A stretch of 64,000 bases of DNA from an uncultured bacterium (GTDB lineage: Bacteria; Patescibacteriota; Minisyncoccia; UBA6257; 2-01-FULL-56-20): positions 656,344 through 720,343 of the forward strand of contig CAVOJZ010000002.1 in the NCBI GenBank assembly GCA_963696395.1, read 5' to 3'. Positions 1-51,171 of the stretch are shown piece after piece (position 1 is the stretch's first letter; each line of letters starts with the position of its first letter). The position numbers were made by a program, and so were the translations under genes. The notes under the pieces were generated by a model. The model did not search any database, had not been told where the DNA came from, and saw nothing but the letters and a program-made list of their open reading frames with translations.

Positions 1-240
1 GGCACCCGCGTATACGGATTTATCGTGCAGGAGCACGAATTATCGGCCGACCTTGCCGATGTCCAGGCAAAGCTTACGAAGGCACAAACCGACGCGGCAT
101 CGCTTCAGGAAGAGTCGCAGTATCTTGCGAACCCGTTGAACCTGGAAAAAGAATTACGCGCACGATTTAATTATAAAAAGCCCGGCGAGACAATGATCAT
201 TATTGTTCCCGAGCAAAGCTCAACTGCGAGTTCCACCTGA
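1..240 (+). CDS. Cell-division protein FtsB/DivIC-like, C-terminal part (5' end outside window)
   Basis: The frame is open from base 1. The coiled-coil C-terminus ends ...NYKKPGETMIIIVPEQ, typical of septum formation initiator proteins. A terminator follows. Confidence 0.45.
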   Translation, partial: GTRVYGFIVQEHELSADLADVQAKLTKAQTDAASLQEESQYLANPLNLEKELRARFNYKKPGETMIIIVPEQSSTASST

Positions 241-244
241 AGAG

Positions 245-280
245 GAAAAAAAGAGGCGTCGTTTTGACGCCTCCGTTTTC
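245..280. terminator. Bidirectional intrinsic terminator (A-tract, gaggcgtc/gacgcctc stem, T-tract)
   Basis: Perfect 8-bp stem with a 5-nt loop, flanked by AAAAAA upstream and TTTTC downstream. It lies between convergent ORFs. Confidence 0.6.
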
Positions 281-314
281 GAGGCTGAGCGCACGACAAC
301 CATAGAGAATTCAC

Positions 315-596
315 TTATGGTGCGACGCTGCTTGGCGGTAGCGATGTAAAGTACCAAATAAAAAGTGCGATGAGCGTGGCAGCGATGGCTATCCAAATCA
401 AAAAGCGGCGCACGGTAATCTGCTCGGGTGCAATGCGCCCCCACCGTCCAGTATTCTCAGCTCTTTTCATGACTGTTTCATCGGGCGAAGAACGTGCTCC
501 AATAATCGCAAGGACGATGCCAAGAGCGCAGGTTACAAGCCCGAGAGCGCTAAAAGCCACATCGCTTCGCACGCCGATAAAAACGAAGATTATCAT
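315..596 (-). CDS. Small hypothetical membrane protein (93 aa, 2-3 predicted TM segments)
   Basis: The ORF has hydrophobic segments. It lies downstream of the tRNA-Gly and the long hairpin on the minus strand, with no competing credible ORF. Confidence 0.35.
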   Translation of the reverse strand: MIIFVFIGVRSDVAFSALGLVTCALGIVLAIIGARSSPDETVMKRAENTGRWGRIAPEQITVRRFLIWIAIAATLIALFIWYFTSLPPSSVAP

Positions 597-793
597 TACG
601 AGAGGCCGACGATGAGTCCAGAAAACAATCCCCGTAAAACGCCAGCGAGATTAAATGTCCTGTCGAACAATGATTGAGTACGACCCTTTGTCATATATTA
701 ATGATAACACAGAGCATGCATCCTCCCATCGGTATGAACGAAAATGTTTCCCCTCCGACCCACCCCTCTGTTCCATTCCCTTATCGGAACCAT

Positions 794-913
794 CTTTCTC
801 TTTCTTGTATTCCTTTTTGAGGACTCTCGGAAGCACGTAGGTGCTGAGAGGTGAGGTGCGTGCGCAGCAGCGCACGACACCGTGCCTCAAAAAGGAATAC
901 AAGAAAGAGAAAG
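794..913. repeat. Perfect 29-bp inverted repeat (794-822 / 885-913) enclosing a 62-nt, internally hairpin-rich spacer; abuts the tRNA-Gly 3' end
   Basis: ctttctctttcttgtattcctttttgagg is exactly reverse-complementary to cctcaaaaaggaatacaagaaagagaaag. The spacer contains nested stems (gcac/gtgc, gtgcg/cgcac, cacg/cgtg). Confidence 0.8.
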
Positions 914-987
914 TGGAGCGGGTAACGGGAATCGAACCCGTATCTCAACCTTGGGAAGGTCGCGTTCTACCACTGAACCATACCCGC
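914..987 (-). tRNA. tRNA-Gly (anticodon CCC), CCA encoded
   Basis: The reverse complement GCGGGTATGGTTCAGTGGTAGAACGCGACCTTCCCAAGGTTGAGATACGGGTTCGATTCCCGTTACCCGCTCCA folds as a cloverleaf: acceptor GCGGGTA/TACCCGC, anticodon loop TTCCCAA, T-loop GGTTCGATTCC. Confidence 0.85.
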
Positions 988-1339
988 GCGAAAACACCGC
1001 GCAGAAAAATAGTACCTTAATCTTTTTTCTTCAGCAAACTGAGGCAGAAAAATGCGGCGGCTATCATGACGACGGTGGGGCCGGGGTCGAGTCCGTACGC
1101 GTGAGCGATGAGGAATCCACCGGTCAGGCAATAAGTGCCCGTTGAAATTGTCCACCCGAGTCTATCGTTTGTTTAATAACGTACCAACGCGCCGGACTGT
1201 ACAGAATGGGTTGCATTTATAACGAATTTGTGGTAAAAATGCGCCAGTAGGTCTGTTTTTAATTGCACCTTAACAAAAGATTTTTTGGGCTCTTTTACAT
1301 TTTTACTAAAGAGTCGCAAAAAATAAATATAAGATTTTT

Positions 1340-4300
1340 ATGGTTAGTTCAAAACGAAAGATAGCCGCGGTGGGTGTGCTTGCGGTAGGGTTTTTCCTCG
1401 CAGGCGCCATCCTCCGTACGGCGTACGCGGATTCAAGTTCCAGCACGGCAATCTCGAGTTCTTCATTTGCTTCGAGCGAAAGCTACGGATCGAATGCCAC
1501 CTCGAGCGCAACGGCAACTTCAAGCGTTGACGGAAGCTCGGTCTCGGCTTCGGCCTCGAGCGAGAGCGGCAACGATCAAGGACCGGAGTGCGATTGCGGC
1601 GATGGACACGAGCACTCCTGCGCACACCTTAAAGTCTACGTGAATGTCGTGAATGCCGGAGGCGGCACAGCGACGTCATCCGACTTTACGGTTGATGTGA
1701 CCGGGAACAATCCCGATCCGTCTCAATTTCAAGGATCAGCAGCCGGGACCAAAGTGCAACTCGGAAATGGAACGTATAACGCGACGGAGCCGTCTCCGCT
1801 CGTAAATTATTCGGCTTCATATTCCAACGATTGTTCAGGCATCATGGCGAACGGTGATTCGAAAGACTGCAATATCACCGACACCTACGTTCCGTCTTCT
1901 CCCGTTGCTGATATATCGGTTACCAAAGTGGTTGATAATTCGAAACCGAGCGAAGGGGACTTCGTGCATTACACAATAACGGCGACCGACCTCGGCCCGG
2001 CAACTTCAACAGGAGTTGTCGCGTCGGACACGCTGCCTGCAGGAGTCACTTTTGTGAGCGACACCGCATCGCAAGGATCGTACGATCCTGCGACAGGCTT
2101 GTGGAATGTGGGAACGCTTTCGGCGAACTCTTCGGCATCGGTTCAGATCACCGCTACGGTAAATGCCGGGACAGCCGGCGAGACGATCACGAATACCGTG
2201 ACGATCGGTGAATCGTCAACCGAGATCGATCCGGTAACGAGCAACAACACTGCAAGTGCATCGATTACAGTCCAAGGTTGTGGCTGCAACGGCGCGCACA
2301 TCAGGGTGGTTGTGGATGTTATCGGCGGCACAGCGACGTCATCCGACTTTACGGTTGATGTGACCGGAAATAATCCGATCCCTTCACAGTTCCAGGGTTC
2401 CTTGGTTGGAACCGATGTTGCTCTTGGCGCAGGTGCGTATAACGTGACGGAGCCAGCTCCGTTGCCAAACTATACGGCTACCTATGCGAAGGCATGTTCC
2501 GGAACTATTCAGAATGGCGATGATAAGCGTTGTGTCATAACTGACACGTATGCATCATTGCCCTTGGCTGATATTGAAGTCGGGAAGACCGTTGATAATG
2601 CGAATCCGAATGTCGGTGACCCGATCCAATACACGATCACGGCAACCGATCTCGGACCAGCGACATCAACAGGAGTTGTCGCGTCGGATACGTTGCCCTC
2701 GGGAGTCACATATGTGAGCAACACTGCTTCACAGGGATCGTATGATCCTGCGAGCGGTTTGTGGAATGTGGGAACACTTTCCGCAAGCTCGTCGGCATCG
2801 CTCGTCATCAATGTGACGGTTAACGCCGGAACAGCCGGTACGACGATCACAAATACCGCAACGATCGGCGAATCAGCCAGTGAAACCGATCCGAACCCTG
2901 CCAACAATTCTTCGTCAGTCAGCATCCTGGTCCAGGGTGGCGGCGGCGGAGGTAGTACGGCTGACATCGGCATCCTGAAGACGGTCAGCAATGCGAATCC
3001 GGCACCCAACACCACCATCAATTACACTTTGACGGCAATGGCAGCGGGTCCGGCGACTTCGACAGGAGTCGTGGCAACGGATACGTTGCCTGCGGGAGTC
3101 ACGTTTGTTTCCGCAACATCATCCGAAGGTACTTATTCAAGCTCTACGGGAAGTTGGCAGATCGGCGATATGTCGGTCAGCTCTACCGCTCAGCTTGTGA
3201 TAACGGCTTCGGTTGATGCAGCTTCAGCGGGACAGACGATCACGAACACCGCAACGATCGGGGAATCAGCCAGTGAAACCGATCCGAATCCTGCCAACAA
3301 TTCTTCGTCAGTCCAGATTAACGTCCAGGGCGGCGGAGGTGGAGGCAGTACGGCTGACATCCAGATTGAGAAAACCGTTGACAATGCAAATCCGGCGCCG
3401 GGCGCAACCGTGACGTACACGATTGCCGTAACCGACAACGGACCGGACGCGTCTCAAATCGTTGATGCGCAAGACGTTTTGCCGACCGGTCTCAGCATCA
3501 TTTCCGCAACCACGTCACAGGGAACGTTCACCGATGGTGGCACCCTCGACTGGAACATCGGAACGGTTGCTCCGAACGCAACGGCAACGTTGGTTCTCGT
3601 GACTTCCGTCGGTTCCAATACAGCGGGACAGACGATCACGAACACTGCAACGGTAACGCAGTTGAGTTCCATCAACGATCCGAACCTTGCCAACAATTCT
3701 TCGTCAGTCAGCATCCTGGTCCAGGGTGGTGGCGGAGGGGGAGGTGGTGGCGGTGGTGGCGGCGGAACGCCGACCGCGGAAATTGCGATTGCAAAATCCG
3801 TGGACAATGCGAATCCGAGCGTGGGAGCCACGATCCATTACGGTGTCACGGTTTCCGCACTTGGCCCTTCGGCATCGTTGGGAGTTAATGCAACGGATAC
3901 GTTGCCTGCCGGACTCACGTTTGTTTCCGCAACCACATCGGCCGGAATCTATAACGCGAGCTCGGGTTCCTGGAGTCTCGGGACGATCGTTAATGGGACG
4001 CATGCAACGCTTACCATTACCGCTCTTGTCACGGGCACGCCCGGGGAAACAATCACGAACACGGCGACCGTTGGCGAATCGAATGCGGTGAACGATCCGA
4101 ACACGCAGAATAATACTGCGAGTGTATCGCTTACCGTTGCCGGCGGAAGCAGTGGTGGCGGCGGAGGCGGTGGCGGGGAAGTGCTTGGAACAAGCACGAG
4201 CACCGGCCAGGTCCTCGGCGCCAGCTGCGGATTGTATCTGAATGAGTACATTCACCCGATCCGCAAGAACTTGAACGATCCGATGGAGGTGGAAAAACTG

Positions 4301-4543
4301 CAAACGTTCCTGAACCAGAATCTCGGGTTGGACCTTCCGGTCACCGGGTACTATGGTTCAAAGACGATTGCCGCAGTTGACCAGTTCCAGGTGAAATACC
4401 ACTCGGAAGTTCTCGCACCATGGTTACACTTCGGTCTTCCGACCGAATTCACACCAACGGATTACGTGTACAAGACGACGCAGCGCTGGATCAACCTGAT
4501 CATGTGCCCGCCGTTGAATCTCGCAATCCCGCAATTGCCTTAG
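1340..4543 (+). CDS. Cell-surface protein: signal peptide, 2 long tandem units plus 4 further DUF11/CARDB-like repeats separated by poly-Gly linkers, C-terminal peptidoglycan-binding-like domain
   Basis: N-terminal hydrophobic signal. Repeated motif ...TITATDLGPATSTGVVASDTLPAGVTFVS...DPNPANNSSS (conserved repeat domain, DUF11 type). GGGGGG linkers. C-terminus L..DPMEVEKLQTFLNQNLG...TGYYGSKTIAAVDQFQ resembles PG_binding_1. Confidence 0.8.
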   Translation: MVSSKRKIAAVGVLAVGFFLAGAILRTAYADSSSSTAISSSSFASSESYGSNATSSATATSSVDGSSVSASASSESGNDQGPECDCGDGHEHSCAHLKVYVNVVNAGGGTATSSDFTVDVTGNNPDPSQFQGSAAGTKVQLGNGTYNATEPSPLVNYSASYSNDCSGIMANGDSKDCNITDTYVPSSPVADISVTKVVDNSKPSEGDFVHYTITATDLGPATSTGVVASDTLPAGVTFVSDTASQGSYDPATGLWNVGTLSANSSASVQITATVNAGTAGETITNTVTIGESSTEIDPVTSNNTASASITVQGCGCNGAHIRVVVDVIGGTATSSDFTVDVTGNNPIPSQFQGSLVGTDVALGAGAYNVTEPAPLPNYTATYAKACSGTIQNGDDKRCVITDTYASLPLADIEVGKTVDNANPNVGDPIQYTITATDLGPATSTGVVASDTLPSGVTYVSNTASQGSYDPASGLWNVGTLSASSSASLVINVTVNAGTAGTTITNTATIGESASETDPNPANNSSSVSILVQGGGGGGSTADIGILKTVSNANPAPNTTINYTLTAMAAGPATSTGVVATDTLPAGVTFVSATSSEGTYSSSTGSWQIGDMSVSSTAQLVITASVDAASAGQTITNTATIGESASETDPNPANNSSSVQINVQGGGGGGSTADIQIEKTVDNANPAPGATVTYTIAVTDNGPDASQIVDAQDVLPTGLSIISATTSQGTFTDGGTLDWNIGTVAPNATATLVLVTSVGSNTAGQTITNTATVTQLSSINDPNLANNSSSVSILVQGGGGGGGGGGGGGGTPTAEIAIAKSVDNANPSVGATIHYGVTVSALGPSASLGVNATDTLPAGLTFVSATTSAGIYNASSGSWSLGTIVNGTHATLTITALVTGTPGETITNTATVGESNAVNDPNTQNNTASVSLTVAGGSSGGGGGGGGEVLGTSTSTGQVLGASCGLYLNEYIHPIRKNLNDPMEVEKLQTFLNQNLGLDLPVTGYYGSKTIAAVDQFQVKYHSEVLAPWLHFGLPTEFTPTDYVYKTTQRWINLIMCPPLNLAIPQLP

Positions 4544-4562
4544 AGGCCTCTTCGGCAATGCA

Positions 4563-4600
4563 AAAACAAAAACCCCGATCATGACGGGGTTTTTGTTTTT
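4563..4600. terminator. Intrinsic terminator (ccccg/cgggg stem, T-tract; A-tract upstream)
   Basis: aaaaaccccgatcatgacggggtttttgttttt. Confidence 0.7.
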
Positions 4601-4646
4601 GTGCGGATAGTAAATTGATATACTGAAGATGCCGTTCAATTGATCC

Positions 4647-7600
4647 ATGAGGTATTCGTATAAATTTTTTTTTATCACAACCGTTGCACTCTGTGGGGTT
4701 TTTATTATCAATCCAACCGCGAAAGCCGCCCTTTGGAGTGGGATCGTTGATCCTTCGAGAGCGGTTGATTGGAGCCAGGCGGGAGCCACGATTTCGATAA
4801 CCCGAACACAATGCTTCACAACGCAGTGCAATGTGGTTTCAAATGGGACCACCGTTACCGCGGCCTCGATCAACGCGGCACTTGCTTCAGCGCCCGCAAA
4901 CACTTACGTGCTCATTCCCGCCGGATCGTTCACGATGTCGGCCGGACTCAACTTCGATAACAAGAGCAATATAACATTGAGAGGTGCGGGGTCTAACGGC
5001 ACATTTTTGACATTTACCGGTTCTGGCAATGCAGGGAATTGCAACGGAAATGATGTGTGTGCTTCGAGTGCCGACACGAATTATTGGGGCGGTCCATCAA
5101 ACATAGCGACATGGAGTGGCACAAACGGCATGAACGGAAGCTATAGCAAGGGCGCCACATCGATAATATTAAATTCAGTTAACAATCTTTCTGTCGGGAT
5201 GCCGGTGGTACTTGATCAAATTGACGATCAAGCTGATAATGGCGGTCTTTATGTTGGATGTGAATACGGAAGTAGCAACAGCGGTGGAGATGTCTCGACC
5301 GCCTGTTACCCGGGCGGTTATCCAAGCGGCTTCCAGCGTGGCGAAGGTTCACTTTCCACCATCCGTGGCCAACAGCAGATTGTGAACGTCACGAGTATTT
5401 CAGGTTCCGGTCCGTACAACGTGGGAATCTCGCCCGGTATTTATGCGGACAATTTTAAAACGAGCCATTCGCCTGGCGCATGGTGGGCGACCAGTCCGAT
5501 ATATAATGATGCCGTTGAAAATATTTCACTCGATCATACGAATGGCGGAGACGGTATCGACTTCTTTAATTGCACCGGTTGCTGGGTTAAAGGTGTTCGT
5601 GGCGTTCGTGCAAGTGTCACGGGTACCGGATGGGCGAACGTCACGCTTTCGCTTTGCAACCACTGTACCGTGCGGGATTCATATTTCTATGGTTATGACG
5701 GAGATTCATACGGGATAGCGGTTGATCTTGCGAGCGACGTGCTGATTGAAAACAATATAACGCAACGGCCAGAGGTAGTATCATTCTTTAATTCGGATTG
5801 CGAGGGGTGTGTAGCCGATTACAACTTTGGCACCAATGATGTGTTCACGAATTCTTCCAATTGGCTTTCCCAAAGCAGCTACTATCATAGTGTCGATTTA
5901 TTCAGTCTTCTTGAAGGGAATATCGGATCGGGGATTTATGCGGACAGCTTTCACGGAACAAAGGGGTTGAATACGCAGTTCCGGAATCGCTTCGACGGAA
6001 GGGAGGAAAACAATGGAAACGCCACTTACTCTGGAACCGTAGCGTTGCGTCTTAATCCTGGTGCGCGTTACAACAACGCGATCGGAAACATTCTTGGCAC
6101 GCCAGGATATCACACGGTATACGAAAGCACCCCTGCGAGTTACGGTAGTCTTTACAATTCAGTTATTGACGCTGGCGCATACGGAGAAACCGGCACGATG
6201 GATGCTTTGGTTGCCCCGACTTCGATGTTTTGGGGAAACTGGGATGTCGTTTCGAATGCGAGCCGCTGGTGTGGTAATGCTTCCGACCCGGGATGGTCAA
6301 CGACGTGCGCAAGCGTTTCCGAAGTGCCAACGGGGCTGAGTAACTATGCGAACGCCGTTCCACTCACTACGACACTGCCTCCATCTTTTATCTATTCAGC
6401 GAAGCCTTCGTGGTGGCCGGCGAACAAAGCTTGGCCTCCAATTGGACCTGACGTTTCCGGCGGAAATGTAGGGCAATGCTCGGGAGGAATCTACGACAGT
6501 TCCGAGGCGATTTCTTCGGCGGAATGTTCGGGCGGGAGTTTTTCTCCTGTTGCGGGCGGGATGGTGAACAGCATCCCGGCGATGGATTGTTACTTCAATA
6601 TCATGGGAGGAGTTCCAAACGGAACCGGAAACGCCTTGTCGTTTGATCCCTCTCTCTGTTATGCCAGCGGAGGAGGCGGAGACACTCAACCCCCAACGGT
6701 TTCTATCACCAACCCAATAAATGGAGCAACAGTTTCGTCTACGGTTATTATCAGCGCGAATGCCTCCGATAACGTAGCAGTAGCTTCTGTTCAGTTTTTT
6801 GTGGATGGGGCCGCAATTGGCACGGATGGAGCGCCTCCTTATACATTTTCATGGGATTCAACGTCTGTTTCGAATGGAACCCATACGATCACAGCTAAAG
6901 CGACCGATACGTCTGGCAACGCTGCGTCTGCGTCAATCACTGTTACCGTGATGAATATCGGCAACGGTGGGGGAGGATTGGGACAAGTAATACAGACTTG
7001 CGGCAACCAGGCGTACGCAAATAAAAATGTTGCTTGCACGTTCGGAAATGCCATCCAGGCTGGAAACGTTATCGTAGTATACGGGTCGGGGAGTATCGGC
7101 TCTTCTACTGGATCGATTTCTGGGTGTGGGCTCACGTGGACCTATCTCAAGCAGGACGCCGCCACTGGATATGTCTCTGCTTACGCCCCTGTGACAAATA
7201 CGAGCGGTTGCACATTAACGATGAGCGAGAGCAACAGTCCAAGCGATGAATCATATGTGAACGCCATTGAAGTTTCGGGGATTACAACAACGGTGGACGG
7301 AAATTCTTATTCCTACAACACGAATCCCGGTCAATCGTCATATGCGACACCAGACATTATTACTACGTCTGGCAATGACTTCGTAATCGGTTCTTGGCTC
7401 GTCCTTTCGAATAATCAATATGGGAGTCCAACGGTTAACTCTCCTTTTGCTCCGTTGTCATTTTCAGCCGGGAATAATGGGCTTATCACATACGACAATC
7501 AATCCACGCCTGGATCAATATTCGCAACAATTAATACAAACAATTATAGCAACCAAGGATTGCAAACCGTCGCATTCAAAACTTCCGGCTCCGGCGGCGG

Positions 7601-8585
7601 TGGCGACACCCAGGCCCCCACGGTCTCCATCACCGCTCCCTCTTCCGGCTCCACCGTCTCAAGCACCATCTCCGTCCAGGCCTCAGCCTCAGATAATGTA
7701 GGGGTCACCGAAGTCCAGTTCCTCCTCGATGGATCAGTTTCCGCCACCGATCTCTCTTCCCCCTACACCTGGAGCTGGAACACGGCATCATCAAGCAATG
7801 GCCCCCATACCCTCAGTGCCAAAGCCTACGATGCCGCAGGGAACGTGGGTACCGCAACGAATGTCGGTATTACCGTGGCAAATACCTCAGGCACCGAGAC
7901 TTCCACCCCCAGCATTGCTTCCTTCTCCGCCAACCCCGGCACGATAGCCGGAGGACAGGCATCCACCCTCTCCTGGGTCGTATCCGGGAATCCTGCTCCT
8001 ACAATCGGCATCACTCCCGGCATCGGTCAGGTGAGTGGATCATCCGTATCCGTCTCTCCCTCAGAAACCACGGCATATACCCTCACGGCACAAAACAGTC
8101 TCGGAATCGCAACCGCACAAACGACCGTGACGGTAGAGACGAGTGGCGGCGGAGGAGGTGGTGGATCTGGAGGAGGCGGCGGAGGAGGAGGCGGCGGAGG
8201 CTCCGGCTCCGGCTCAGGTAGTAGTTCTGGCTCTGGCTCTGGCTCTTCTTCAGATTCTTCCCCCTCTGCTCTCCAGGCTCTTCTCCAATCCCTCTTGGCA
8301 GAGCTTGAGTCCTTGATCAACGAGCTCAACACCCAGCTTGTAGCCAGCTTTACCCGAAATCTCACGATCGGATCATCAGGACAAGACGTCAAAAACCTCC
8401 AGATCTTCCTGAATGACAACGGCTACACCGTATCCCTATCAGGAGCCGGATCTCCCGGACATGAAGGGACTACCTTTGGGGCAAAAACGGCACAGGCACT
8501 CATGAAATTCCAGGCGAAGCATCAACTCAAAGCCACCGGTTTCTTTGGACCGGCAACGAGGGCATTTATGGAGGGGAAGTGGTGA
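4647..8585 (+). CDS. Giant surface protein paralog (1312 aa): signal peptide, right-handed beta-helix (pectate-lyase-like) domain, Ig-like (Big) domains, Gly/Ser linker, C-terminal PG-binding module
   Basis: Signal peptide MRYSYKFFFITTVALCGVF. Beta-helix-like region with repeated G/N-rich turns. Two DTQ(A/P)PTVSIT...Ig-like domains. GGGGGSGGGG...SGSGS linker. C-terminus LNDNGY...GHEGTTFGAKTAQALMKFQ. Confidence 0.8.
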   Translation: MRYSYKFFFITTVALCGVFIINPTAKAALWSGIVDPSRAVDWSQAGATISITRTQCFTTQCNVVSNGTTVTAASINAALASAPANTYVLIPAGSFTMSAGLNFDNKSNITLRGAGSNGTFLTFTGSGNAGNCNGNDVCASSADTNYWGGPSNIATWSGTNGMNGSYSKGATSIILNSVNNLSVGMPVVLDQIDDQADNGGLYVGCEYGSSNSGGDVSTACYPGGYPSGFQRGEGSLSTIRGQQQIVNVTSISGSGPYNVGISPGIYADNFKTSHSPGAWWATSPIYNDAVENISLDHTNGGDGIDFFNCTGCWVKGVRGVRASVTGTGWANVTLSLCNHCTVRDSYFYGYDGDSYGIAVDLASDVLIENNITQRPEVVSFFNSDCEGCVADYNFGTNDVFTNSSNWLSQSSYYHSVDLFSLLEGNIGSGIYADSFHGTKGLNTQFRNRFDGREENNGNATYSGTVALRLNPGARYNNAIGNILGTPGYHTVYESTPASYGSLYNSVIDAGAYGETGTMDALVAPTSMFWGNWDVVSNASRWCGNASDPGWSTTCASVSEVPTGLSNYANAVPLTTTLPPSFIYSAKPSWWPANKAWPPIGPDVSGGNVGQCSGGIYDSSEAISSAECSGGSFSPVAGGMVNSIPAMDCYFNIMGGVPNGTGNALSFDPSLCYASGGGGDTQPPTVSITNPINGATVSSTVIISANASDNVAVASVQFFVDGAAIGTDGAPPYTFSWDSTSVSNGTHTITAKATDTSGNAASASITVTVMNIGNGGGGLGQVIQTCGNQAYANKNVACTFGNAIQAGNVIVVYGSGSIGSSTGSISGCGLTWTYLKQDAATGYVSAYAPVTNTSGCTLTMSESNSPSDESYVNAIEVSGITTTVDGNSYSYNTNPGQSSYATPDIITTSGNDFVIGSWLVLSNNQYGSPTVNSPFAPLSFSAGNNGLITYDNQSTPGSIFATINTNNYSNQGLQTVAFKTSGSGGGGDTQAPTVSITAPSSGSTVSSTISVQASASDNVGVTEVQFLLDGSVSATDLSSPYTWSWNTASSSNGPHTLSAKAYDAAGNVGTATNVGITVANTSGTETSTPSIASFSANPGTIAGGQASTLSWVVSGNPAPTIGITPGIGQVSGSSVSVSPSETTAYTLTAQNSLGIATAQTTVTVETSGGGGGGGSGGGGGGGGGGGSGSGSGSSSGSGSGSSSDSSPSALQALLQSLLAELESLINELNTQLVASFTRNLTIGSSGQDVKNLQIFLNDNGYTVSLSGAGSPGHEGTTFGAKTAQALMKFQAKHQLKATGFFGPATRAFMEGKW

Positions 8586-8632
8586 GGGAAAATGATTTGC
8601 AATTTTAACCGGTACATGATATAATATTTTTA

Positions 8633-9673
8633 ATGAAAAAGCGGTTAAAAAAGTACCTAATTCCCCATAAGGAGAACGATTATAAACCGCATTTGCTTCG
8701 CCCGAAATTTGTGGCGTTGGTTTGTCTCGTTGTTATCGTCGCTGAATCCGCGCTTCTTTTAGGGTCGCACTATCTTGTGCCCCGATCGAAGTTGTTCGGC
8801 ATTATCGTGACGAACGCATTGATCGATGAGACCAACGAGAGCAGGACGGCAAACAACCTGCCGACGCTCCACGAAAATTCATTGCTCGACGCGGCTGCGC
8901 AGGAAAAAGCCAACGATATGGCGACGAATAATTATTTTGCGCATACAAGCCCAACGGGACTCACGCCGTGGTATTGGTTCAACCAGGTCGGCTATAACTT
9001 TGCCTACGCGGGCGAAAATCTTGCCGTGAATTTTTCCGACTCGCAGGACGTGACAAACGCATGGATGAATTCGCCGGAGCATCGCGCGAATATTTTGGAT
9101 GCCAATTATAGCGACATCGGGATGGCCGCCGCGCAGGGAACCTTCCAGGGCCATCCGGCGACGTATGTCGTCGAGCTTTTCGGATCGCTTGCGCCCACGC
9201 CGGTCGCCGTGAATTCGATTCCGGGAATCGCATCGGCACAGGCGGCTCCGAAGCCTGTTGCTCCGGCCGCTCCGGCCGCAAAGCCAAAGCCAGCTTCCAA
9301 ACCGGCCCCGGCCGTCGCAAAGCCGACGTCGAGCCAGGTCTCCATTTCCATGCAGGACATCGCGACGCAAACTCCTTCGGCTACCGCGCATGCAACGAGT
9401 GTCGTGCTTGGTTTCGTTTCTTCGGATAATAATGGACCGGCGATTCGGCAGACAAACGCCATTCAGGAGGCGCTTTCGGATCCGAAGACGCTTGCCAACG
9501 ACTTTTATCTTTTCTTAATGATTCTTTTTACCGTCGCCCTTGTGCTTAATGTCTTCATTAATATCCGCATGCAATATCCCAAGCTCATTTTCGGGGGTTT
9601 GCTTGTCATCGTTGTTGCCGGGCTCGCGATACTCCTCAACCAGAGCGCCTTGGTTCACGCGGCAATCCTCTAA
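8633..9673 (+). CDS. CAP/SCP (cysteine-rich secretory protein family) domain protein with N- and C-terminal TM segments and an Ala/Pro/Lys-rich linker
   Basis: Motifs ...YFAHTSPTG...NAWMNSPEHRANIL are typical of the CAP superfamily. The start may be leaderless: TGATATAAT lies 7 nt upstream of the ATG. Confidence 0.65.
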   Translation: MKKRLKKYLIPHKENDYKPHLLRPKFVALVCLVVIVAESALLLGSHYLVPRSKLFGIIVTNALIDETNESRTANNLPTLHENSLLDAAAQEKANDMATNNYFAHTSPTGLTPWYWFNQVGYNFAYAGENLAVNFSDSQDVTNAWMNSPEHRANILDANYSDIGMAAAQGTFQGHPATYVVELFGSLAPTPVAVNSIPGIASAQAAPKPVAPAAPAAKPKPASKPAPAVAKPTSSQVSISMQDIATQTPSATAHATSVVLGFVSSDNNGPAIRQTNAIQEALSDPKTLANDFYLFLMILFTVALVLNVFINIRMQYPKLIFGGLLVIVVAGLAILLNQSALVHAAIL

Positions 9674-9714
9674 AAATTGCGAAGCACCCTCCGAAGGCAT
9701 AGAATGGTAAGCAA

Positions 9715-11418
9715 ATGCCTTCTTCGACGACAGAACTCATAAAGAGCAAGCTCGACGTTGTTGATTTTCTGCGCGGCTATTTAACGCTCACGCCGGCCGG
9801 CAGGAACTTTAAGGCGCTGTGCCCGTTCCATCACGAAAAATCGCCTTCCTTTATGGTATCGCCCGACCGGCAGTCGTGGCATTGTTTTGGCTGCAGTTTA
9901 GGCGGCGACATTTTCACTTTTATTATGCGGTATGAAAATTTGGAATTCGGTGAAGCCATGCGGATGCTTGCCGAGAAAGCCGGCGTGGAGTTGCGCCATG
10001 AGAATCCCGCAGAGTACCGCTATAGCGGATTGCTCTACGACCTGAATGAGCAGGCGAAAAATTATTATCGCAAAGCGCTCGCCGCTGCACCTGTGGCAAA
10101 AAAATATTTGGATGAGCGTGGATTAAAACCGGAGACGATTGAAACGTTTGAAATCGGCTGGGCCCCGAACGAGCCCGAAGGCCTTTCAATGTTCCTGCTT
10201 AATTCCGGCAACGCGCCGCAGGACCTTATCCAGGCCGGCCTCTCTATTAAAACCGAGCGGGGATTGATGCTCGATCGGTTCCGCGGGCGCATCATGTTCC
10301 CGATTCACAATCATCTTGGCAAGGTGGTCGGATTTACGGGACGCATCCTGCCCCAGCTCGACCGCGGCGATATGGGCAAATATGTAAACAGCCCCGAAAC
10401 CGCGATTTTCCAAAAATCAAAACTGCTCTACGGTTTTTGGAAAAGCAAAGATTCCATCCGTGAGGCGAAGACCGCAGTCCTCATGGAAGGGCAGATGGAT
10501 TTTTTAATGAGTTACCAATCGGGGCTTACGAATGTCGTTGCGAGTTCCGGAACGGCGCTCACGGGCGACCATCTGCGCGTTATTCATCGGCTCGCCGAAG
10601 AAATCGTTTTGTGTTTCGACAGTGATGTTGCCGGAGCCGACGCGGCGGAACGGGCGATTGACCTTGCCGAAGCGAACGATTTCAGCGTGAAGATTGCAAC
10701 ATTCAAAGATTTTAAAGATGCCGCCGACGCGGCGAAAGCCGATCCTGAAAATGTGAAGAAAACGATTTCCGCCGCAGTGCAGGCGCCGTTATTTTATTTT
10801 GCAAAATATTTGCCCGAAGACGTTGCGGAGCTCAAGACGCGCGAAGGCCTCCACAAACTTCGGGCCGTACTTGGCAAGCTGAAGATCATTGCAAGCCCCG
10901 TCGAACGCGGCTTTTGGTTCGCCGATCTTGCAAGGCGCACCGGCATCAACGAAAGGACGCTTCAGGAGGAAGCCGAAAAAGCTGCGGTTATGGGAATCCC
11001 CGTGAACGCCCGGAAAGAAGAGGAAGTTGCCAAGCGCCAGATTTCGCGCCAGGATCGGTTGTGCGAACAGCTGCTCGTTGCGGCATTTGCAAAAAATAAT
11101 TTTGATCTCATCGAAGATTGCGTGCCCTATTTTAAGCCGGCGCAGAAAGAGGTGTATCGCATCCTAAAGGACGGCAAGAAGCGGAGCGAGGATCCATCGC
11201 TTGATGAAGTGGTCGGGCTTGTGGTCCTCGGTGCATCAAGCGAAATGAGCGACGAGGAAATCGCCGCGCTCAAGGCTGAGCTTGCGAAAGAGTATTATAA
11301 AGACCGCCGACAGATCCTCGCGATGGCCATCAAAAATGCCGAAGCCAAGGGAAACGAGCCGGAGTTAAAAGCCGCTCTCATGGAACTGAACGACCTGCCA
11401 TTCACTCCTGAAGGGTAG
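9715..11418 (+). CDS. dnaG: DNA primase
   Basis: CHC2 zinc finger CPFHHEKSPSFMVSPDRQSWHCFGCSLGGDIFTF, TOPRIM region, and operon position before rpoD. Confidence 0.9.
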   Translation: MPSSTTELIKSKLDVVDFLRGYLTLTPAGRNFKALCPFHHEKSPSFMVSPDRQSWHCFGCSLGGDIFTFIMRYENLEFGEAMRMLAEKAGVELRHENPAEYRYSGLLYDLNEQAKNYYRKALAAAPVAKKYLDERGLKPETIETFEIGWAPNEPEGLSMFLLNSGNAPQDLIQAGLSIKTERGLMLDRFRGRIMFPIHNHLGKVVGFTGRILPQLDRGDMGKYVNSPETAIFQKSKLLYGFWKSKDSIREAKTAVLMEGQMDFLMSYQSGLTNVVASSGTALTGDHLRVIHRLAEEIVLCFDSDVAGADAAERAIDLAEANDFSVKIATFKDFKDAADAAKADPENVKKTISAAVQAPLFYFAKYLPEDVAELKTREGLHKLRAVLGKLKIIASPVERGFWFADLARRTGINERTLQEEAEKAAVMGIPVNARKEEEVAKRQISRQDRLCEQLLVAAFAKNNFDLIEDCVPYFKPAQKEVYRILKDGKKRSEDPSLDEVVGLVVLGASSEMSDEEIAALKAELAKEYYKDRRQILAMAIKNAEAKGNEPELKAALMELNDLPFTPEG

Positions 11419-21222: not shown

Positions 21223-21660
21223 ATGGCAACCACACCAATAACAAAACATCCCGCGCCGGCACATGCCCACAAGCCCGGCCGCTACACCGAAGCTGTCGGC
21301 CGCCGCAAAACGGCGATCGCCCGCGTCCGCTTGATGAAAGGGGACGGCAAGGTGACAGTGAATGGCAAGGAGCTCAAGCATTATTTTGTCCTTTCGCGCC
21401 ACGCCATTGCGGCGCGCTCTCCGCTCGATCAGCTCAAGCTTGTTGACTTCGATGTGACCGCGCATGTTTCCGGTGGTGGCATTCATGCCCAGGCCGAAGC
21501 CATTCGCCTCGGACTCTCCCGCGCGATCGTTCTCAAAGATCCCGAATGGAAACCGCGCCTCCGCGCGATCGGTTTCATGACCCGCGATTCCCGCATGGTT
21601 GAGCGCAAAAAGTACGGCAAGAAGAAAGCCCGACGCAGTCCCCAGTGGGCGAAAAGGTAA
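21223..21660 (+). CDS. rpsI: 30S ribosomal protein S9 (ATG at 21223 immediately after the rplM stop; track start 21205 overlaps rplM)
   Basis: ...GRRKTAIARVRLMKGDGKVTVNGK...SGGGIHAQAEAIRLGLSRAI...RDSRMVERKKYGKKKARRSPQWAKR. Confidence 0.85.
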   Translation: MATTPITKHPAPAHAHKPGRYTEAVGRRKTAIARVRLMKGDGKVTVNGKELKHYFVLSRHAIAARSPLDQLKLVDFDVTAHVSGGGIHAQAEAIRLGLSRAIVLKDPEWKPRLRAIGFMTRDSRMVERKKYGKKKARRSPQWAKR

Positions 21661-21680
21661 AGATACAGAAATTGCACATG

Positions 21681-21790
21681 CAAAAACACCCCAGAGAATA
21701 TCTGGGGTGTAGTGTATGTGTTCAGAAAATGAATTGATGATTTTTTGTCGCCTTGTGTTCGGAAAATGAATAGAGAACTTTTCCGCCATC
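21681..21790. repeat. Copy 1 of a ~100-nt repeated intergenic element: 9-bp hairpin (acaccccag/ctggggtgt), which acts as a minus-strand terminator, followed by two direct repeats GTGTTC(A/G)GAAAATGAAT
   Basis: About 80% identical to 40208-40310. On the minus strand the hairpin is followed by TTTTTG. Confidence 0.6.
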
Positions 21791-24140: not shown

Positions 24141-24389
24141 GTGATACATTGAAGTCACAACTGAATAGAAGTCGCCTAAACCTGTCAGAAATGGCGGGCA
24201 TGGCGCAAAGTCCGGTTAGACATAAAGAACCCATCATGTGGGATTGTCTAACCGGCCATATCGGGAAACCGATATGGAGGGCCAAAAACCCTCGCCTACG
24301 TGGTGGGCTTTTTATTAAAAAAGTTTTCTGCGTGGCGAGCTATATATCTTCAAGCCGGACGGAAGATATGGACGGAATCAGCCACGGTT

Positions 24390-26486
24390 ATGCCAAAAGA
24401 ACTACAAACGCAACTTTCCGATAACGAAAGACGAGACGTGATAAAGTATTTGGAAGCAGGGAAACCGCTTCCGGAAAAATATCGTTTTTTACTATTCAGT
24501 GAGGCTCAAGAGGTAGAGCTTCTTTGGAACGGTAAGACCAATGAGGTTACGAATGTCGTATTGCCGTTCCAAGTAATAGAGCAGATAGACGAACCAAGAA
24601 GCGATAAAAAGATTGGGCTGCAGGATTCTCTTTTCGATACTTCAGGCAGGCAGATAACGGGCTGGACGAATAAGCTGATCTGGGGCGATAACAAGCTTAT
24701 TCTTTCATCGCTCAATAATGGACCATTGCGAAAAGAAATAGAGGCGAATGGGGGCTTGAAATTGATTTACATCGATCCACCATTCGACGTTGGTGCCGAT
24801 TTTTCTATGGATATTAAAATCGGTGATGGCGATGATGAAGAAAGTTTTACAAAAAAACCATCAGTGATAGAAGAAATCGCTTATCGCGACACGTGGGGCA
24901 AGGGCGCTGACAGTTTTATTGCGATGGTGTATGAACGGTTAAAATTGATGCACGCCTTGTTAGCTGAAGACGGCAGTTTGTATGTTCATTGTGATTATCG
25001 TGTTAGTGGATATATGAGATTGGCTCTTGACGAAGTGTTTGGAAAAGATAACTTTAGAAATGAAATTGTATGGGGTTATAGGACGGGTGGTATCTCTAAG
25101 GAGTTTTTTGCTCGCAAACACGACATTGTGTTTTTCTATGCAAAGAATGCCGAGAAAGTAAAATTTAATACTCAATTTTATAAATCCTTCCAACAGAAAA
25201 AATATAATTTTAAAGGAGTTGAGGATTTATGGGATGAAGAAAAAGAGCAGTGGTACCATAACTCAGTTTGTCGGGACGTCTGGGAAGATGTGTTCCCAAT
25301 AGGAACCGAGAATAGCGAGCGCCTTGATTATCCGACACAAAAGCCAGTTGCGCTTCTCGACCGAATAATTAAAGCATCCTCAAATGAGGGCGACCTCATC
25401 GCCGATTTCTTCTGTGGTTCCGGGACAACACTTGCTGTTGCAGAAAAACTCGGTAGGAAATGGATTGGTTCCGATCTTGGAAAATTTGGCATTCATACGT
25501 CGCGCAAACGATTAGTCGGGACGCAGAGAGAACTCAAAAGGGAAGGCAAGAATTTTCGCGCCTTCGAGATTTTGAATGTCGGCAGATATGAAAGGGATAA
25601 TTTTCTCAAGTTGAATAACGATTTGCGTGCGGAGGAAAAAGCTAAGCAAGCAGAAAGAAAAGAGAAAGAATTCGTGCAACTAATCATTTCTGCATATAAA
25701 GCTGAACCAGTGGGGTCTTTTAAGACCCTGGTCGGGAAGAAACGCGATAGATTGGTTGCAGTTGGGCCAATCAATGCCCCGGTTTCCGAACGACTCGTTC
25801 AGCAGATCGTTGAGGAATGCGAGAAAATGAAGATAACTAAAGTGGACGTTCTGGGATTTGATTGGGAGATGGGCTTTGATCGACATGAATTCAGGGGGAG
25901 CGGCATTGATATCGCCTTTAAAGTAATTCCGAGAGAAGTGTTTGATAAGAAGGCAGTGGAAAAAGGCCAAGTCAAGTTTTACGATGTGGCATTCATTGAA
26001 GCGGAGCCGGTTATTAAAGGCAACGCCAACAATAAAGAACTTTCCATTGCACTTACAGATTTTTCCGTTTTTTATAACCAAGATGATTCCGGTGAGGTGG
26101 AGGAAGCCCTTCGACCTGGCGGCGTAAAAATTATCGTAGAAAATGGGCAGGTAGTGAAAATGTCAAAAGACAAAGCGACCGAACTCATTGAAAAGGAGAT
26201 ACTGACGAAGAAGTGGAGTGATTGGATTGACTATTGGGCAGTTGATTTTGATTTTTCGAGCCGAAAGGAGATTGTCAAAGTAATGGAAGGGGGCAAAGAG
26301 AATGAGGTCTGGACGGGGGATTACATTTTTGATAACGAATGGCAAAGCTTCCGGACAAAGAAGAACAGGAACCTTGAATTGACCTCCGCGCCCAAGGTAG
26401 TGCGAAAGGGGACGTATAAAGTCGCGGTTAAAGTCGTAGACATTTTCGGGAACGATACGACAAAGGTAATCGAGGTAAAAATATAA
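24390..26486 (+). CDS. mod: Type III restriction-modification DNA methyltransferase (Mod; beta-class N6A/N4C MTase); alternative GTG start at 24300
   Basis: ...[13 protein letters not shown]...[14 protein letters not shown] (motif IV DPPF) precedes motif [26 protein letters not shown]. The length and a C-terminal target-recognition-like region fit Mod. It is immediately followed by res. Confidence 0.8.
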
Positions 26487-26487
26487 T

Positions 26488-29181
26488 ATGGCCCTACCTA
26501 AAGATTTTCCCAAAGATCCCTATGCCATATTAGATCCGAGCATTCGATGGTTTCCTGCCGATGAAGATTTGCGCGAAAAAGGGTACGACAAACTTCTGCC
26601 TCCACTTGTCGCTGAATTACGCAAGAGAGTAAAGAAGTGGCGAGACGATCACTATGAAGGTGCAAGTGAAACCTCGCGAGCGCTTTTGAACTGGTGGTTT
26701 AATGAGGATCATATTTTGTACGACGAATATGGCGCATCGTCTCAGTTTAGATATTATTTTGCCCAAAGGGAGGCGTTAGAGACGGTTATCTGGTTATATG
26801 AGGTCGCAAAGGTCAAAGATAAGTACGACCTCATTCGATATAATTCGACCGGCGTGCTGAGTGCGGGGATGTTCACTGAAGACTGGTTGCGTTTTGTAAT
26901 CAAGATGGCAACGGGGTCGGGCAAAACCAAGGTGATGAGCCTTGTGGTGGCATGGGCATATTTCCATAAAAAATACGAATCAGATTCCAAATTGGCAAAG
27001 AATTTTCTCTTAATAACTCCTAATGTCATCGTCTTCGAAAGAATAAAGAACGATTTTGAGGGGTTGAAGATATTCTTTAGCGATCCCGTGTTACCGGAAA
27101 ATGGATATGAGGGTCAAAACTGGCAGGATGATTTTCAGATGACGCTTCACTTACAAGACGACTTGCGGAACGTCTCTGAAACGGGAAACATATTTCTAAC
27201 GAATATCCACCGAGTATATGAAAATGACGTAAGGGAAGCGAGTCCGGACGACGAGGATGCTTCTGCGTATTTCTTGGGCGAGAAGCCTGTTACGAAAACA
27301 AACGATTCTACGGTCGATTTAGGGATGATCGTCAGAGATATCGATGAGCTGATTGTCATCAACGATGAAGCGCATCATATACACGATGAAAAGATGGCGT
27401 GGTTCAAGTCGATTTTGGATATCGATAACAAATTGAAGCAAAAGGGGTCGGGTTTGGCTTTGCAGCTGGACGTGACAGCAACGCCAAAGAAAAGTGACGG
27501 GTCTATTTTTGTGCAAACCATTTCCGACTATCCACTTGTCGAAGCCATATACCAGAGAATCGTAAAAAATCCCGTTGTGCCGGATGCGGCGAGTAGGGGA
27601 AAACTGAAAGAAAATCAAAGTGCTTTGTTCAGTGAAAAATACAGGGATTACATAAACCTTGGCATTGAAGAATGGCGAAAAACGTACGAGACGCTCAAGC
27701 CCATGGGCAAGAAATCAATTCTTTTCATCATGACCGATGACACGAAGAACTGCGATGAGGTTGCTGAATATATCGAAACGAGCTACGCAGACTTGAAAGG
27801 GGCCGTCTTAACTATTCATACCAATAAGAGCGGTGAAATCTCGGAGAATGTTACCGGCAAGAACAAGGATGAATTGGATTTGCTGAGGAAACAGGCGAAC
27901 GATATAGATAGCTTGGAAAGCCGGTTTAAAGTAATCGTGTCGGTTATGATGCTCAAAGAAGGATGGGATGTCAAAAACGTCACCACAATCGTCGGGCTGA
28001 GGCCGTTTGCGGCAGATTCAAAGATATTGCCCGAACAAACCCTGGGGCGGGGTCTCCGAAGGATGTTCTTCGGCAGGGATGACGTTGAAGAATATGTGAG
28101 CGTCGTAGGCACACCGATGTTTATGGATTTCGTCGAATCCATCAAGGGCGAAGGTGTGATCCTTGAAAGGAAAGCGATGGGGAGTGGGTCAAAACCGATT
28201 ACGCCGATGGTCGTTGAAGTGGACAGGGAGAATCCCAAGAAAGATATTGAAAAGTTGGACATTGAAATACCGGTGATGTCTCCCAGGATACAAAGGGAGT
28301 ACAAGAATTTGGCGGAGTTAGATGTTTCCACTTTTGGGAATAAGAAGGTTAAAGTGAAAACTTTCTCCGAAGAGGAGAAAAGAGAAATAGTGTTCAAAGA
28401 CGTCGTCGATGAAAAGACGCATCATACGACCATATTGACCGGGGATATCGAGCCGGATTATCAAAGCGTTATCGGTTTTTTTGCTCAATCGGTGATGAGG
28501 GACCTTCGGCTGTTCGGCTGCTACGATATTTTATTCGGCAAGGTGAAGGAATTCGTGCAGCATCACCTGTTTGATAAGCCGGTGGATTTGTCGGATCTGA
28601 ATGTCTTGAGGAATTTATCGGAGATCGAATACATACGACTAATCAAAGAGTCCTTCAAAAAAGCCATCAACGAACTCACGGTGCAGGATAAAGGCGATGC
28701 CGAAATCAAGAACTATATTAAAATCAGTGAAGCGCGGCCATTCGTCGTCAATGATAAGTCCTACTTAATCCCTAAAAAATCAGTTTTCAATAGGATTGTC
28801 GGCGACAGCGATTTTGAACTCGTCTTCTCGGAGTTTATCGATAGGTGCGACGACATCATTTCTTTCTCAAAGAATTTTCAAAATAAGGAGACGAATGCTT
28901 TGAGGATTGAATATAAAAATTCGGAAGGTGTCATCGCTATGTACTATCCCGATTTCTTCGTTAAGAAAGATGATCGGACGGTCTATATTATTGAGACCAA
29001 GGGGAGAGAGGAGGAAGACGATAAATTGAAATTTGAACGATTACAAAAATGGTGCGAAGATGTTAATGAGAGACAGAGCAGAATGATGTATAAAGCTTTA
29101 TATATTAAGCAGGAGGAGTGGCAAAAAGAACGACTCAAGAATTTCGATGAGGTTATAAGGATGTTTGATAAAGAAAAATAG
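26488..29181 (+). CDS. res: Type III restriction enzyme Res subunit (SF2 helicase + C-terminal PD-(D/E)xK nuclease)
   Basis: Walker A IKMATGSGKTKVMS, DEAH-like VINDEAHHI, helicase motifs, and C-terminal YYPDFFV...IIETKG. The ATG is 1 nt after the mod stop, indicating translational coupling. Confidence 0.8.
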   Translation: MALPKDFPKDPYAILDPSIRWFPADEDLREKGYDKLLPPLVAELRKRVKKWRDDHYEGASETSRALLNWWFNEDHILYDEYGASSQFRYYFAQREALETVIWLYEVAKVKDKYDLIRYNSTGVLSAGMFTEDWLRFVIKMATGSGKTKVMSLVVAWAYFHKKYESDSKLAKNFLLITPNVIVFERIKNDFEGLKIFFSDPVLPENGYEGQNWQDDFQMTLHLQDDLRNVSETGNIFLTNIHRVYENDVREASPDDEDASAYFLGEKPVTKTNDSTVDLGMIVRDIDELIVINDEAHHIHDEKMAWFKSILDIDNKLKQKGSGLALQLDVTATPKKSDGSIFVQTISDYPLVEAIYQRIVKNPVVPDAASRGKLKENQSALFSEKYRDYINLGIEEWRKTYETLKPMGKKSILFIMTDDTKNCDEVAEYIETSYADLKGAVLTIHTNKSGEISENVTGKNKDELDLLRKQANDIDSLESRFKVIVSVMMLKEGWDVKNVTTIVGLRPFAADSKILPEQTLGRGLRRMFFGRDDVEEYVSVVGTPMFMDFVESIKGEGVILERKAMGSGSKPITPMVVEVDRENPKKDIEKLDIEIPVMSPRIQREYKNLAELDVSTFGNKKVKVKTFSEEEKREIVFKDVVDEKTHHTTILTGDIEPDYQSVIGFFAQSVMRDLRLFGCYDILFGKVKEFVQHHLFDKPVDLSDLNVLRNLSEIEYIRLIKESFKKAINELTVQDKGDAEIKNYIKISEARPFVVNDKSYLIPKKSVFNRIVGDSDFELVFSEFIDRCDDIISFSKNFQNKETNALRIEYKNSEGVIAMYYPDFFVKKDDRTVYIIETKGREEEDDKLKFERLQKWCEDVNERQSRMMYKALYIKQEEWQKERLKNFDEVIRMFDKEK

Positions 29182-34508: not shown

Positions 34509-34539
34509 AAGAGAGGACAAAAAGAAATTTCCTAAAGTC

Positions 34540-51131: not shown

Positions 51132-51171
51132 TGGATCGAGAACAAACAAAGCAAAGTGGTAAAATGAAACA

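Follow-up and report, generated by a model that had tools for sequence, protein, structure and literature searches.

Mosaic 3' ends in a family of giant secreted-protein genes of a Patescibacteriota genome: probable ectopic gene conversion of a shared C-terminal anchor module

Background

In Helicobacter pylori the dispersed surface-protein paralogs babA, babB and babC, and likewise homA and homB, differ in their ligand-binding parts while their anchoring 3' segments are similar within a genome; in the account given by a later review, these segments evolve in concert by RecA-dependent gene conversion (Pride & Blaser 2002, reviewed in PMC3960876), and chimeric genes arise there by non-reciprocal intragenomic recombination (PMC3960876). 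Here we describe a comparable locus in a window of 64,000 nucleotides (nt) from an uncultured bacterium of the Patescibacteriota (assembly GCA_963696395.1, contig CAVOJZ010000002.1, positions 656,344 to 720,343 of the forward strand; all positions below count from the first letter of the window). Six giant genes of this window, called G2 to G7, encode secreted proteins with a common C-terminal anchor module, and two of them, G2 and G6, which lie on the same strand (+) 46 kb apart, share a low-divergence 3' block that we think was probably produced by ectopic gene conversion, as one part of a family-wide homogenisation of the anchor comprising events of several ages.

The bab and hom genes appear to be the closest analogue of G2-G7, although they have homologous 5' ends as well and an outer-membrane beta-barrel for an anchor, whereas the heads of G2-G7 are unrelated enzymes set on a module of Ig-like domains, linker, predicted coiled coil and PG_binding_1. 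Conversion in H. pylori has moreover been demonstrated experimentally and alters the adhesion phenotype; the G2/G6 tract is older (synonymous divergence, dS, of ~0.3) and is known from sequence alone. A second comparison is offered by Giant1-5 of Apilactobacillus kunkeei, giant beta-solenoid surface proteins that also end in a common small C-terminal wall-binding domain, and in whose genes divergence is highly heterogeneous along the sequence, which has been attributed to many short recombination tracts (PMC12863079). Their anchor is SH3b-like, not PG_binding_1, they belong to the phylum Firmicutes, and their recombination occurs mainly between strains at positional homologues and not between paralogs of one genome (PMC12863079).

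Secreted enzymes with C-terminal PG_binding_1 anchors differ from G2-G7 in that the latter carry a conserved segment, predicted to form a coiled coil, before PG_binding_1. Paralogs of one genome that present different exposed domains on a near-identical C-terminal wall-anchoring region include slpA/slpB of Lactobacillus acidophilus and pneumococcal PspA/PspC; slpA and slpB are inverted and their expression is switched by inversion, and choline-binding repeats bind teichoic acid. Unlike slpA/slpB, G2-G7 all lie on the same strand, each with its own start codon and signal peptide, and give no indication of switching. The process considered here is thus known in kind and the lineage is little studied; searching the literature for gene conversion in Patescibacteria, or for the G2-G7 protein family, we found no report.

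Results and discussion

The low-divergence block shared by G2 and G6

BLASTN aligns the 3' parts of G2 and G6 over 822 nt (7665-8485 with 53758-54551) at 87.2% identity. Likelihood change-point segmentation of the series of G2-G6 mismatches (likelihood ratio, LR, of 100) sets the limits of the low-divergence block as listed in Table 1. It encodes Big_7 from about its codon 21, an Ig-like domain, the linker, the predicted coiled coil and the first ~2/3 of PG_binding_1, and its only indel, of 27 nt, lies in the Gly linker. Between the two copies there are perfect runs of 130, 78, 59 and 42 nt, the longest of which exceeds the longest run in all 20,000 permutations of the observed differences (p<5e-5, all sites); the block also holds 43 consecutive identical third positions (permutation p = 2.5e-4). 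A 74-mer present at 7818-7891 in G2 and at 53911-53984 in G6 occurred twice by chance in 0 of 100 shuffles. The shared segment is real and far beyond chance. Segmentation within the block sets the 130-nt tract apart from the remainder (LR 29.7), and this tract probably represents a younger conversion nested in an older exchange.

A preliminary description of the window, made from its letters without database searches, had correctly located both open reading frames (ORFs), which lie on the + strand, and had noticed the shared 3' segment, which it took for ~1 kb at ~95% identity reaching the ends of both genes. The segment is present, but as ~0.8 kb at 90%: over the coordinates used there (7600-8585 and 53690-54651), global alignment gives 84.4% identity in ungapped columns and 81.4% in all columns, and the last ~120 nt, at 55% identity, fall outside the block. 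The 74-mer had been quoted there as part of an identical stretch of more than 90 nt, which measures 78 nt, and the identical stretch of ~140 nt across linker and coiled-coil start measures 130 nt.

Synonymous divergence was estimated by the Nei-Gojobori method segment by segment. Between G2 and G6, dS is 0.33 in the Big_7 core, 0.32 in the Ig-like domain and 0.24 in the coiled coil plus the 5' part of PG_binding_1, with non-synonymous divergence (dN) of 0.05-0.06 over the block; the resulting dN/dS of ~0.17 indicates that the module is functional. Set against every other paralog, and against the nearest foreign genes (L001, L002, L072), these segments reach dS values of 0.83 or more, most of them exceeding 1.2 or saturated. 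The G2-G6 block is therefore genuinely younger than the family. This is the comparison that the preliminary description had proposed, and the block, at dS 0.24-0.33, proved 3-5 times less diverged than any other family member or the nearest foreign homologues; the proposal of recent gene conversion thus fares well as to kind, ectopic conversion being the probable process, and poorly as to date, since a dS of ~0.3 is substantial and only the nested 130-nt tract looks young.

Low synonymous divergence might also reflect constraint at the nucleotide level, with codon bias or an overlapping element (RNA structure, antisense gene) freezing synonymous sites, and it is true that antisense ORFs overlap the block and that the tract of highest identity in it falls on the repetitive linker. 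However, in G3, G4, G5 and G7 the coiled-coil and PG_binding_1 residues are the same but are specified by other codons, at dS >1 versus G2/G6, so no general synonymous constraint is acting, and codon bias in particular was rejected because at these codons the other paralogs have reached saturation. The antisense ORFs mirror the linker in low-complexity readings of unequal length (130 aa for 8027-8419, 75 aa for 54258-54485), that resemble one another because the sense-strand block is shared, as had been proposed; a real antisense gene was rejected on the grounds of this low complexity and inequality. An Rfam scan of both shared blocks found no RNA family. We consider constraint an extremely improbable explanation.

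Block edges within domains and a chimeric G6

Both edges of the block fall within homologous domains, the 5' one after ~20 codons of Big_7 and the 3' one with ~39 codons of PG_binding_1 still to come. The 5' edge is placed inside Big_7 because 7605-7667 lies outside the block; in 7605-7664, 14 of the 20 third positions differ between G2 and G6 while homology at the protein level is kept. At the other end, the last 39 codons of PG_binding_1 have a dS >1.3 between the two genes; third positions are close to saturation in both flanks. Because these divergent flanks belong to the same domains, G2 and G6 must already have possessed Big_7 and PG_binding_1 before the exchange.

The two tails have different affinities. 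That of G2 is like the tails, ending in ...GKW, that giants carry in other Paceibacteria-like genomes; over its final ~45 nt it matches G7 at 89% identity. The G6 tail resembles that of G4 (dS 0.26; BLASTN of 39878-40145 with 54414-54680 gives 86.7%), and the G4-G6 likeness extends beyond the stop codon for about 55-65 nt, in a flank common to G3. Informative sites in G6 are G2-like in 49 of 53 cases to the left of ~54532 and G4-like in 49 of 54 to the right; the maximum chi-square for this breakpoint is 74, and none of 5000 permutations gave a value as large (p<2e-4). It is statistically clear that G6 is a chimera of G2-like and G4-like sequence. A single clean conversion of ~1 kb was rejected, divergence being heterogeneous and the tail G4-like.

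These edges bear directly on whether G6 might simply be a fairly recent product of module duplication or domain shuffling, a whole G2 anchor having been copied and fused to another head in the absence of any conversion. The heads of the two proteins are unrelated, the head and middle domain of G2 recur reordered in G7, a Gly-rich linker lies just 5' of the block, and C-terminal PG_binding_1 anchors are found on thousands of different large proteins, all of which would suit such a copy. Duplication nevertheless predicts a uniform dS, whereas the first 21 Big_7 codons and the last 39 PG_binding_1 codons stand at background divergence; the G6 tail and 3' flank match G4 at 92%; and the 130-nt zero-difference tract needs a second event. 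Even a duplication would have to be followed by two or more additional homologous exchanges, and we regard it as unlikely. Conversion is preferred over a merely younger duplicate because of the edges within domains, the G4-like tail of G6, the nested tract, and the patchwork that extends through the family.

Mosaicism across the family

The six aligned 3' ends (G2-G7) were examined with the pairwise homoplasy index (PHI) and maximum chi-square tests. PHI rejects absence of recombination among the six sequences (p<5e-4), and significant switches of affinity are found in G7 (G5-like to G3-like, p = 2e-4), in G4 (G3-like to G6-like at ~39970, p<2e-4) and in G2 (G6-like to G7-like at ~8487, p<2e-4), all by maximum chi-square. 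The nearest paralog changes every 30-60 nt along every gene, and the G7 anchor is a patchwork of G2-, G5-, G3- and again G2-like sequence. G3 and G4 are 84.5% identical over 806 nt (33779-34573 with 39390-40183), including ~65 nt past their stops, with a dS of ~0.3 in the FN3 part that is similar to that of the G2-G6 block; their 3' ends form another such block. The pair G2-G6, presented at first as a special case, is thereby one of several, alongside G3-G4, the G4-G6 tail (92%) and other pairs.

Sharing is not confined to 3' ends. G3, G4, G5 and G7 have in common a 5' untranslated region and signal-peptide leader (...TTATCCCCACCTCCTCATTTTGCCCCCCCCAGAACACGGTAAACTGAT...) at 82-83% identity, and a terminator-like hairpin (GGGCGAAGCGCTAA...TAGCTCAACAAAGGTTGAGCTATTTTCTT) stands upstream of G3, G4 and G6 at 89-93% (G6 copy region 51052-51132); G2 has neither the leader nor the hairpin element. 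Since leaders and hairpins are shared as well as 3' ends, both gene ends have been homogenised in most of the family. One might go further and see in the conserved 5' leader (G3, G4, G5, G7) and 3' anchor (all six) a pair of recombination handles, serving not passive homogenisation but head-swapping diversification of a surface glycan-degrading arsenal in ultra-small, presumably host-dependent Patescibacteria; this we offer as a speculation with little likelihood of being right.

Cassette-based antigenic variation of the pilE/pilS or vlsE type was rejected, the family consisting of six complete ORFs and the self-BLAST of the window showing no truncated cassettes.

Table 1. Positions in the window of the six genes and of the shared, divergent and flanking segments discussed in the text
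Feature	Coordinates	Strand	Remarks
G2	4647-8585	+	ORF, 1312 aa
G3	30321-34508	+	Ig-like, FN3, linker, predicted coiled coil, PG_binding_1
G4	34705-40116	+	1803 aa
G5	41049-44897	+	1282 aa
G6	51172-54651	+	ORF, 1159 aa
G7	57114-61181	+	1355 aa; internal beta-helix domain homologous to G2 head
Low-divergence block, G2 copy	7668-8465	+	90.1% over 771 ungapped columns; partner 53761-54531
Low-divergence block, G6 copy	53761-54531	+	Partner 7668-8465; Gly linker 27 nt shorter
130-nt zero-difference tract, G2 copy	8209-8338	+	End of Ser/Gly linker and start of predicted coiled coil
130-nt zero-difference tract, G6 copy	54275-54404	+	Partner 8209-8338
78-nt identical run inside Big_7	7817-7894	+	Partner 53910-53987; includes the 74-mer
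5' flank of block in G2	7605-7667	+	First 21 codons of C-terminal Big_7; partner 53698-53760; 60% nt identity
G2 tail	8466-8582	+	Last 39 codons of PG_binding_1; ends ...GPATRAFMEGKW; 55% identity to G6
G6 tail and 3' flank	54532-54715	+	Last 39 codons (...GEMEKLY); 92% identity to G4 tail, not G2
G4 tail and 3' flank	39997-40170	+	Partner of G6 tail
Antisense ORF	8027-8419	-	130 aa, P/E-rich; partner 54258-54485; reverse reading of Gly/Ser linker
Shared 5' leader, G3	30182-30383		
Shared 5' leader, G4	34564-34767		
Shared 5' leader, G5	40987-41114		
Shared 5' leader, G7	57092-57183		

Domain architecture of the six proteins

Each of the six genes is a complete ORF beginning with ATG. In G2, G3, G6 and G7 the signal peptides can be read from the sequence itself, those of G4 and G5 following from alignment of the shared leader. 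G2 encodes a signal peptide, a beta-helix head (aa 1-682), Big_7, a lectin-like middle domain and the anchor module; G6 encodes a signal peptide, LamG, FN3, a putative beta-helix head and an anchor module of G2 type. The C-terminal order is Big_7, Ig-like, Gly/Ser linker, heptad-patterned helix and PG_binding_1 in G2 and G6, and Ig-like, FN3, Gly linker, the same helix and PG_binding_1 in G3, G4, G5 and G7; from its heptads the helix is a candidate coiled coil. In all six proteins the PG_binding_1 match (PF01471) spans the last ~60 residues, with Pfam scores of 47.4 bits in G2, 38.1 in G6 and 42-43 in the remaining members (gathering cutoff 23), and the domain is predicted from its family membership to bind peptidoglycan. 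Big_7 (PF17957) scores 138.8 bits in G2 (two copies) and 79.4 in G6 (gathering cutoff 24.1). Together these presumably wall-anchored, polysaccharide-lyase-like giants of one anchor design fill ~25 kb of the 64-kb window.

Upstream of the shared segment G2 and G6 are not related, as the preliminary description had said: BLASTP between these parts finds only a generic Ig/FN3 match. It had also assigned a pectate-lyase-like beta-helix to G2, and the AlphaFold2 model of the head (aa 1-682) is a confident right-handed beta-helix (mean predicted local distance difference test score, pLDDT, 87.1; predicted template-modelling score, pTM, 0.90) for which Foldseek against the PDB returns the Klebsiella K1 capsule lyase 7w1c as best match (E 7e-12), along with phage tailspikes and depolymerases. 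For G6, LamG followed by a beta-helix had been proposed; Pfam finds Laminin_G_3 and fn3, the latter above its gathering cut-off, which bears out the LamG domain, but the head model is of low confidence (pLDDT 56.5) and its weak matches to PL6 beta-helix lyases (E ~3e-4) are indicative only. For the heads of G2 and G6, neither sequence searches of the PDB nor Pfam scans at permissive settings gave a match.

Outside the anchor module, the description of G2 and G6 as distant paralogs does not hold, their heads being unrelated and that of G2 being homologous to a domain of G7. G2 4734-6704 (aa 30-686) aligns with G7 58383-60239 (aa 424-1042) at 29% identity (E 4e-43), and the G2 middle domain (aa 781-879) aligns with the N-terminus of G7 (aa 35-133) at 31% (E 6e-9), which would mean that the deeper paralog of G2 is G7, not G6. 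Because head and middle domain stand in a different order in G7, domains have been shuffled within the family.

Related modules in other genomes

The closest relatives of the modules come from Paceibacterota/Patescibacteria metagenome-assembled genomes (MAGs). In the databases searched, full-length queries with G2 and G6 returned no close orthologue of either: the best G2 match (67% identity) covers the head only, and the best G6 matches (38-47%) cover the central domain and have different C-termini. A profile of the coiled coil plus PG_binding_1 matched 7118 cluster representatives at E<=1e-10, many of them C-terminally in proteins of 1000-4700 aa; the coiled-coil segment (...LLAELE.LI..LNTQLV.SFTRNLT...) was matched end to end in only about a dozen of the best 150 representatives. 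The segment was seen mainly in Patescibacteria-labelled proteins. In a word-indexed database the same profile matched only proteins of <200 aa, and the giants of the window were not recovered. Giants with G2-type modules in other genomes end in ...GPKTRAY(M/L)(Q/E)GKW, as G2 ends in ...GPATRAFMEGKW.

A similar pattern occurs on another Patescibacteria MAG contig (L016), where three adjacent giants (130-3087, 3454-6282, 7407-10730) have ~520-nt 3' ends, encoding a Gly linker and two PG_binding_1 domains, at 76-83% nt identity, below unrelated heads (beta-helix; LamG plus an unknown region; LamG plus beta-helix). The same architecture and 3' homogenisation are therefore present in a different genome. 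Likewise, L071 and L073 differ in their heads and are 84% identical in their 3' ends over 358 nt.

Such modules elsewhere invite the alternative that G6 (or G2) acquired the block from outside, its own sequence having recombined homologously with DNA of a related strain or species, and a dS of ~0.3 would fit the G2 orthologue of a diverged relative as donor. Foreign modules, however, are at most 79% identical in nucleotides to those of the window, and no external sequence exceeds that value against either copy, whereas G2 and G6 are 87-90% alike and the two copies of the block 90%; no true orthologues are among the sequences compared, and this contrast, like the grouping of the modules by genome (window, L016), is no more than suggestive of paralogs within a genome being closer than orthologues between genomes. 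A patchwork among six co-resident genes is more simply intragenomic. Import is the less parsimonious account, and we hold it to be quite unlikely.

The independent assemblies also weigh on the fidelity of the sequence itself. The window apparently derives from a 913,682-bp contig of an uncultured organism, and cross-mapping of reads between paralogous 3' ends during assembly or polishing could have yielded a chimeric consensus with false identical tracts, those observed (130, 78 and 59 nt) being on the scale of k-mers or short reads. Against such an artefact, reads would map uniquely at ~88% background identity, the frames are intact at a dN/dS of ~0.17 with differences dispersed along the block, the tail of G6, itself G4-like, carries 8% differences and so was not copied in by a polisher, and the same type of mosaic occurs in L016 and in L071/L073. 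An artefact is accordingly very improbable, and ectopic conversion within the genome is retained as the preferred explanation.

Neighbouring genes and other repeats

The genes around the family are ordinary chromosomal ones, encoding a CAP-domain protein, DnaG, RpoD and AlaRS. The CAP/SCP-domain secreted protein gene (8633-9673, +) adjoins G2, and promoter and terminator scans at the 3' ends of G2 and G6 gave nothing of use besides a promoter-like site for this downstream gene. A homologous CAP gene (L001 1675-2577) adjoins a G2-type giant in the Paceibacterota MAG locus L001, and the two may form a conserved gene pair. Between G1 and G2 a perfect-stem inverted repeat (4561-4601) is a likely terminator. 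G1 itself (1340-4543, +) encodes 1067 aa with five DUF11 repeats separated by poly-Gly linkers and a different PG_binding_1-like C-terminus; nearly identical stretches within its internal repeats (2887-2946 with 3676-3735 at 96.7%; 3074-3117 with 3890-3933 at 95.5%) suggest intragenic homogenisation.

Two copies of a small CxxC...CxxC zinc-ribbon ORF (...VVELLHHF.CKKCKKWWSIGDAP.N.HVWFCPWCG.ENNY...) lie at 29980-30195 (+), ~130 nt upstream of G3, and at 55700-56080 (+), ~1 kb upstream of G7, with 93% nt identity over 152 nt (30015-30166 with 55900-56051). Just 3' of G4, 40170-40296 forms a 126-nt direct repeat with 21643-21768 (77%), and an inverted repeat (770-822 with 885-937) lies beside tRNA-Gly(CCC) (914-987). 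A full-length LOOT RNA (Rfam RF03000; 24173-24293, +; 89.9 bits, E 9e-16) stands directly 5' of 24300-29181, which encodes an N6_N4_Mtase DNA methylase and a ResIII helicase in a type III restriction-modification-like arrangement; the GC content of this region (0.44 versus ~0.52) and its strong positive GC skew (~0.2) suggest an acquired island.

A model for the exchange, and its limits

The six giant Sec-secreted proteins would display differing lyase-like or lectin-like heads on a common C-terminal anchor composed of Ig-like spacers, a flexible Gly/Ser linker, a short predicted coiled coil and PG_binding_1. From Pfam membership and architecture, this module may be read as a spacer-linker-oligomerisation-wall-binding device for glycan-degrading heads, most likely attaching the enzymes non-covalently to peptidoglycan, either of the cell itself or of a host. 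The 3' ends that encode the anchor appear to have the length and similarity that homologous recombination requires of its substrates, and would have exchanged short to medium tracts repeatedly by non-reciprocal ectopic recombination (gene conversion). RecA-type recombination between dispersed direct repeats is the probable route, with heteroduplex or double-strand-break repair copying the anchor sequence of one paralog into another; the perfect runs of 130, 78, 59 and 42 nt would offer adequate segments of homology.

Under this model a G2-type tract of ~0.8 kb most likely overwrote the interior of G6's own anchor, long enough ago for dS to reach ~0.3, with a younger tract of ~130 nt inside it, and the end of G6, from its last 39 codons into the 3' flank, would record a separate exchange with G4. 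The direction was most likely from G2 to G6, because G2-type modules ending in ...GKW occur elsewhere, while the surroundings of the block in G6 (the ...KLY tail, the 3' flank and the upstream hairpin) group with G3 and G4. Homogenisation of this sort would keep the anchors uniform as the heads diverge.

These conclusions must be tempered by several points that weigh against conversion as we have described it. The lack of close orthologues makes a strict comparison of paralogs with orthologs impossible, and both non-reciprocity and direction are beyond proof from one genome. At dS ~0.3 the main event is not recent, and a block at ~10% divergence may now recombine poorly. The divergent 5' flank is only 63 nt long, and the coiled coil and peptidoglycan binding are predictions. 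Of the parallels in other genomes, L070, L071 and L073 come from one soil metagenome and may or may not belong to one genome.

Conclusions

The mechanism proposed is a textbook one, and the observations extend a known phenomenon to a new lineage and leave its concepts unchanged. They indicate that intragenomic recombination is active, or has repeatedly been so in the past, in a streamlined genome of ~0.9 Mb. For annotation they carry a warning, in that the 3' ends of G2-G7 hold no orthology signal and can lead gene trees, read mapping and binning astray. As regards patescibacterial biology, they point to a modular surface-enzyme toolkit in which the anchor is kept uniform and the heads diversify.

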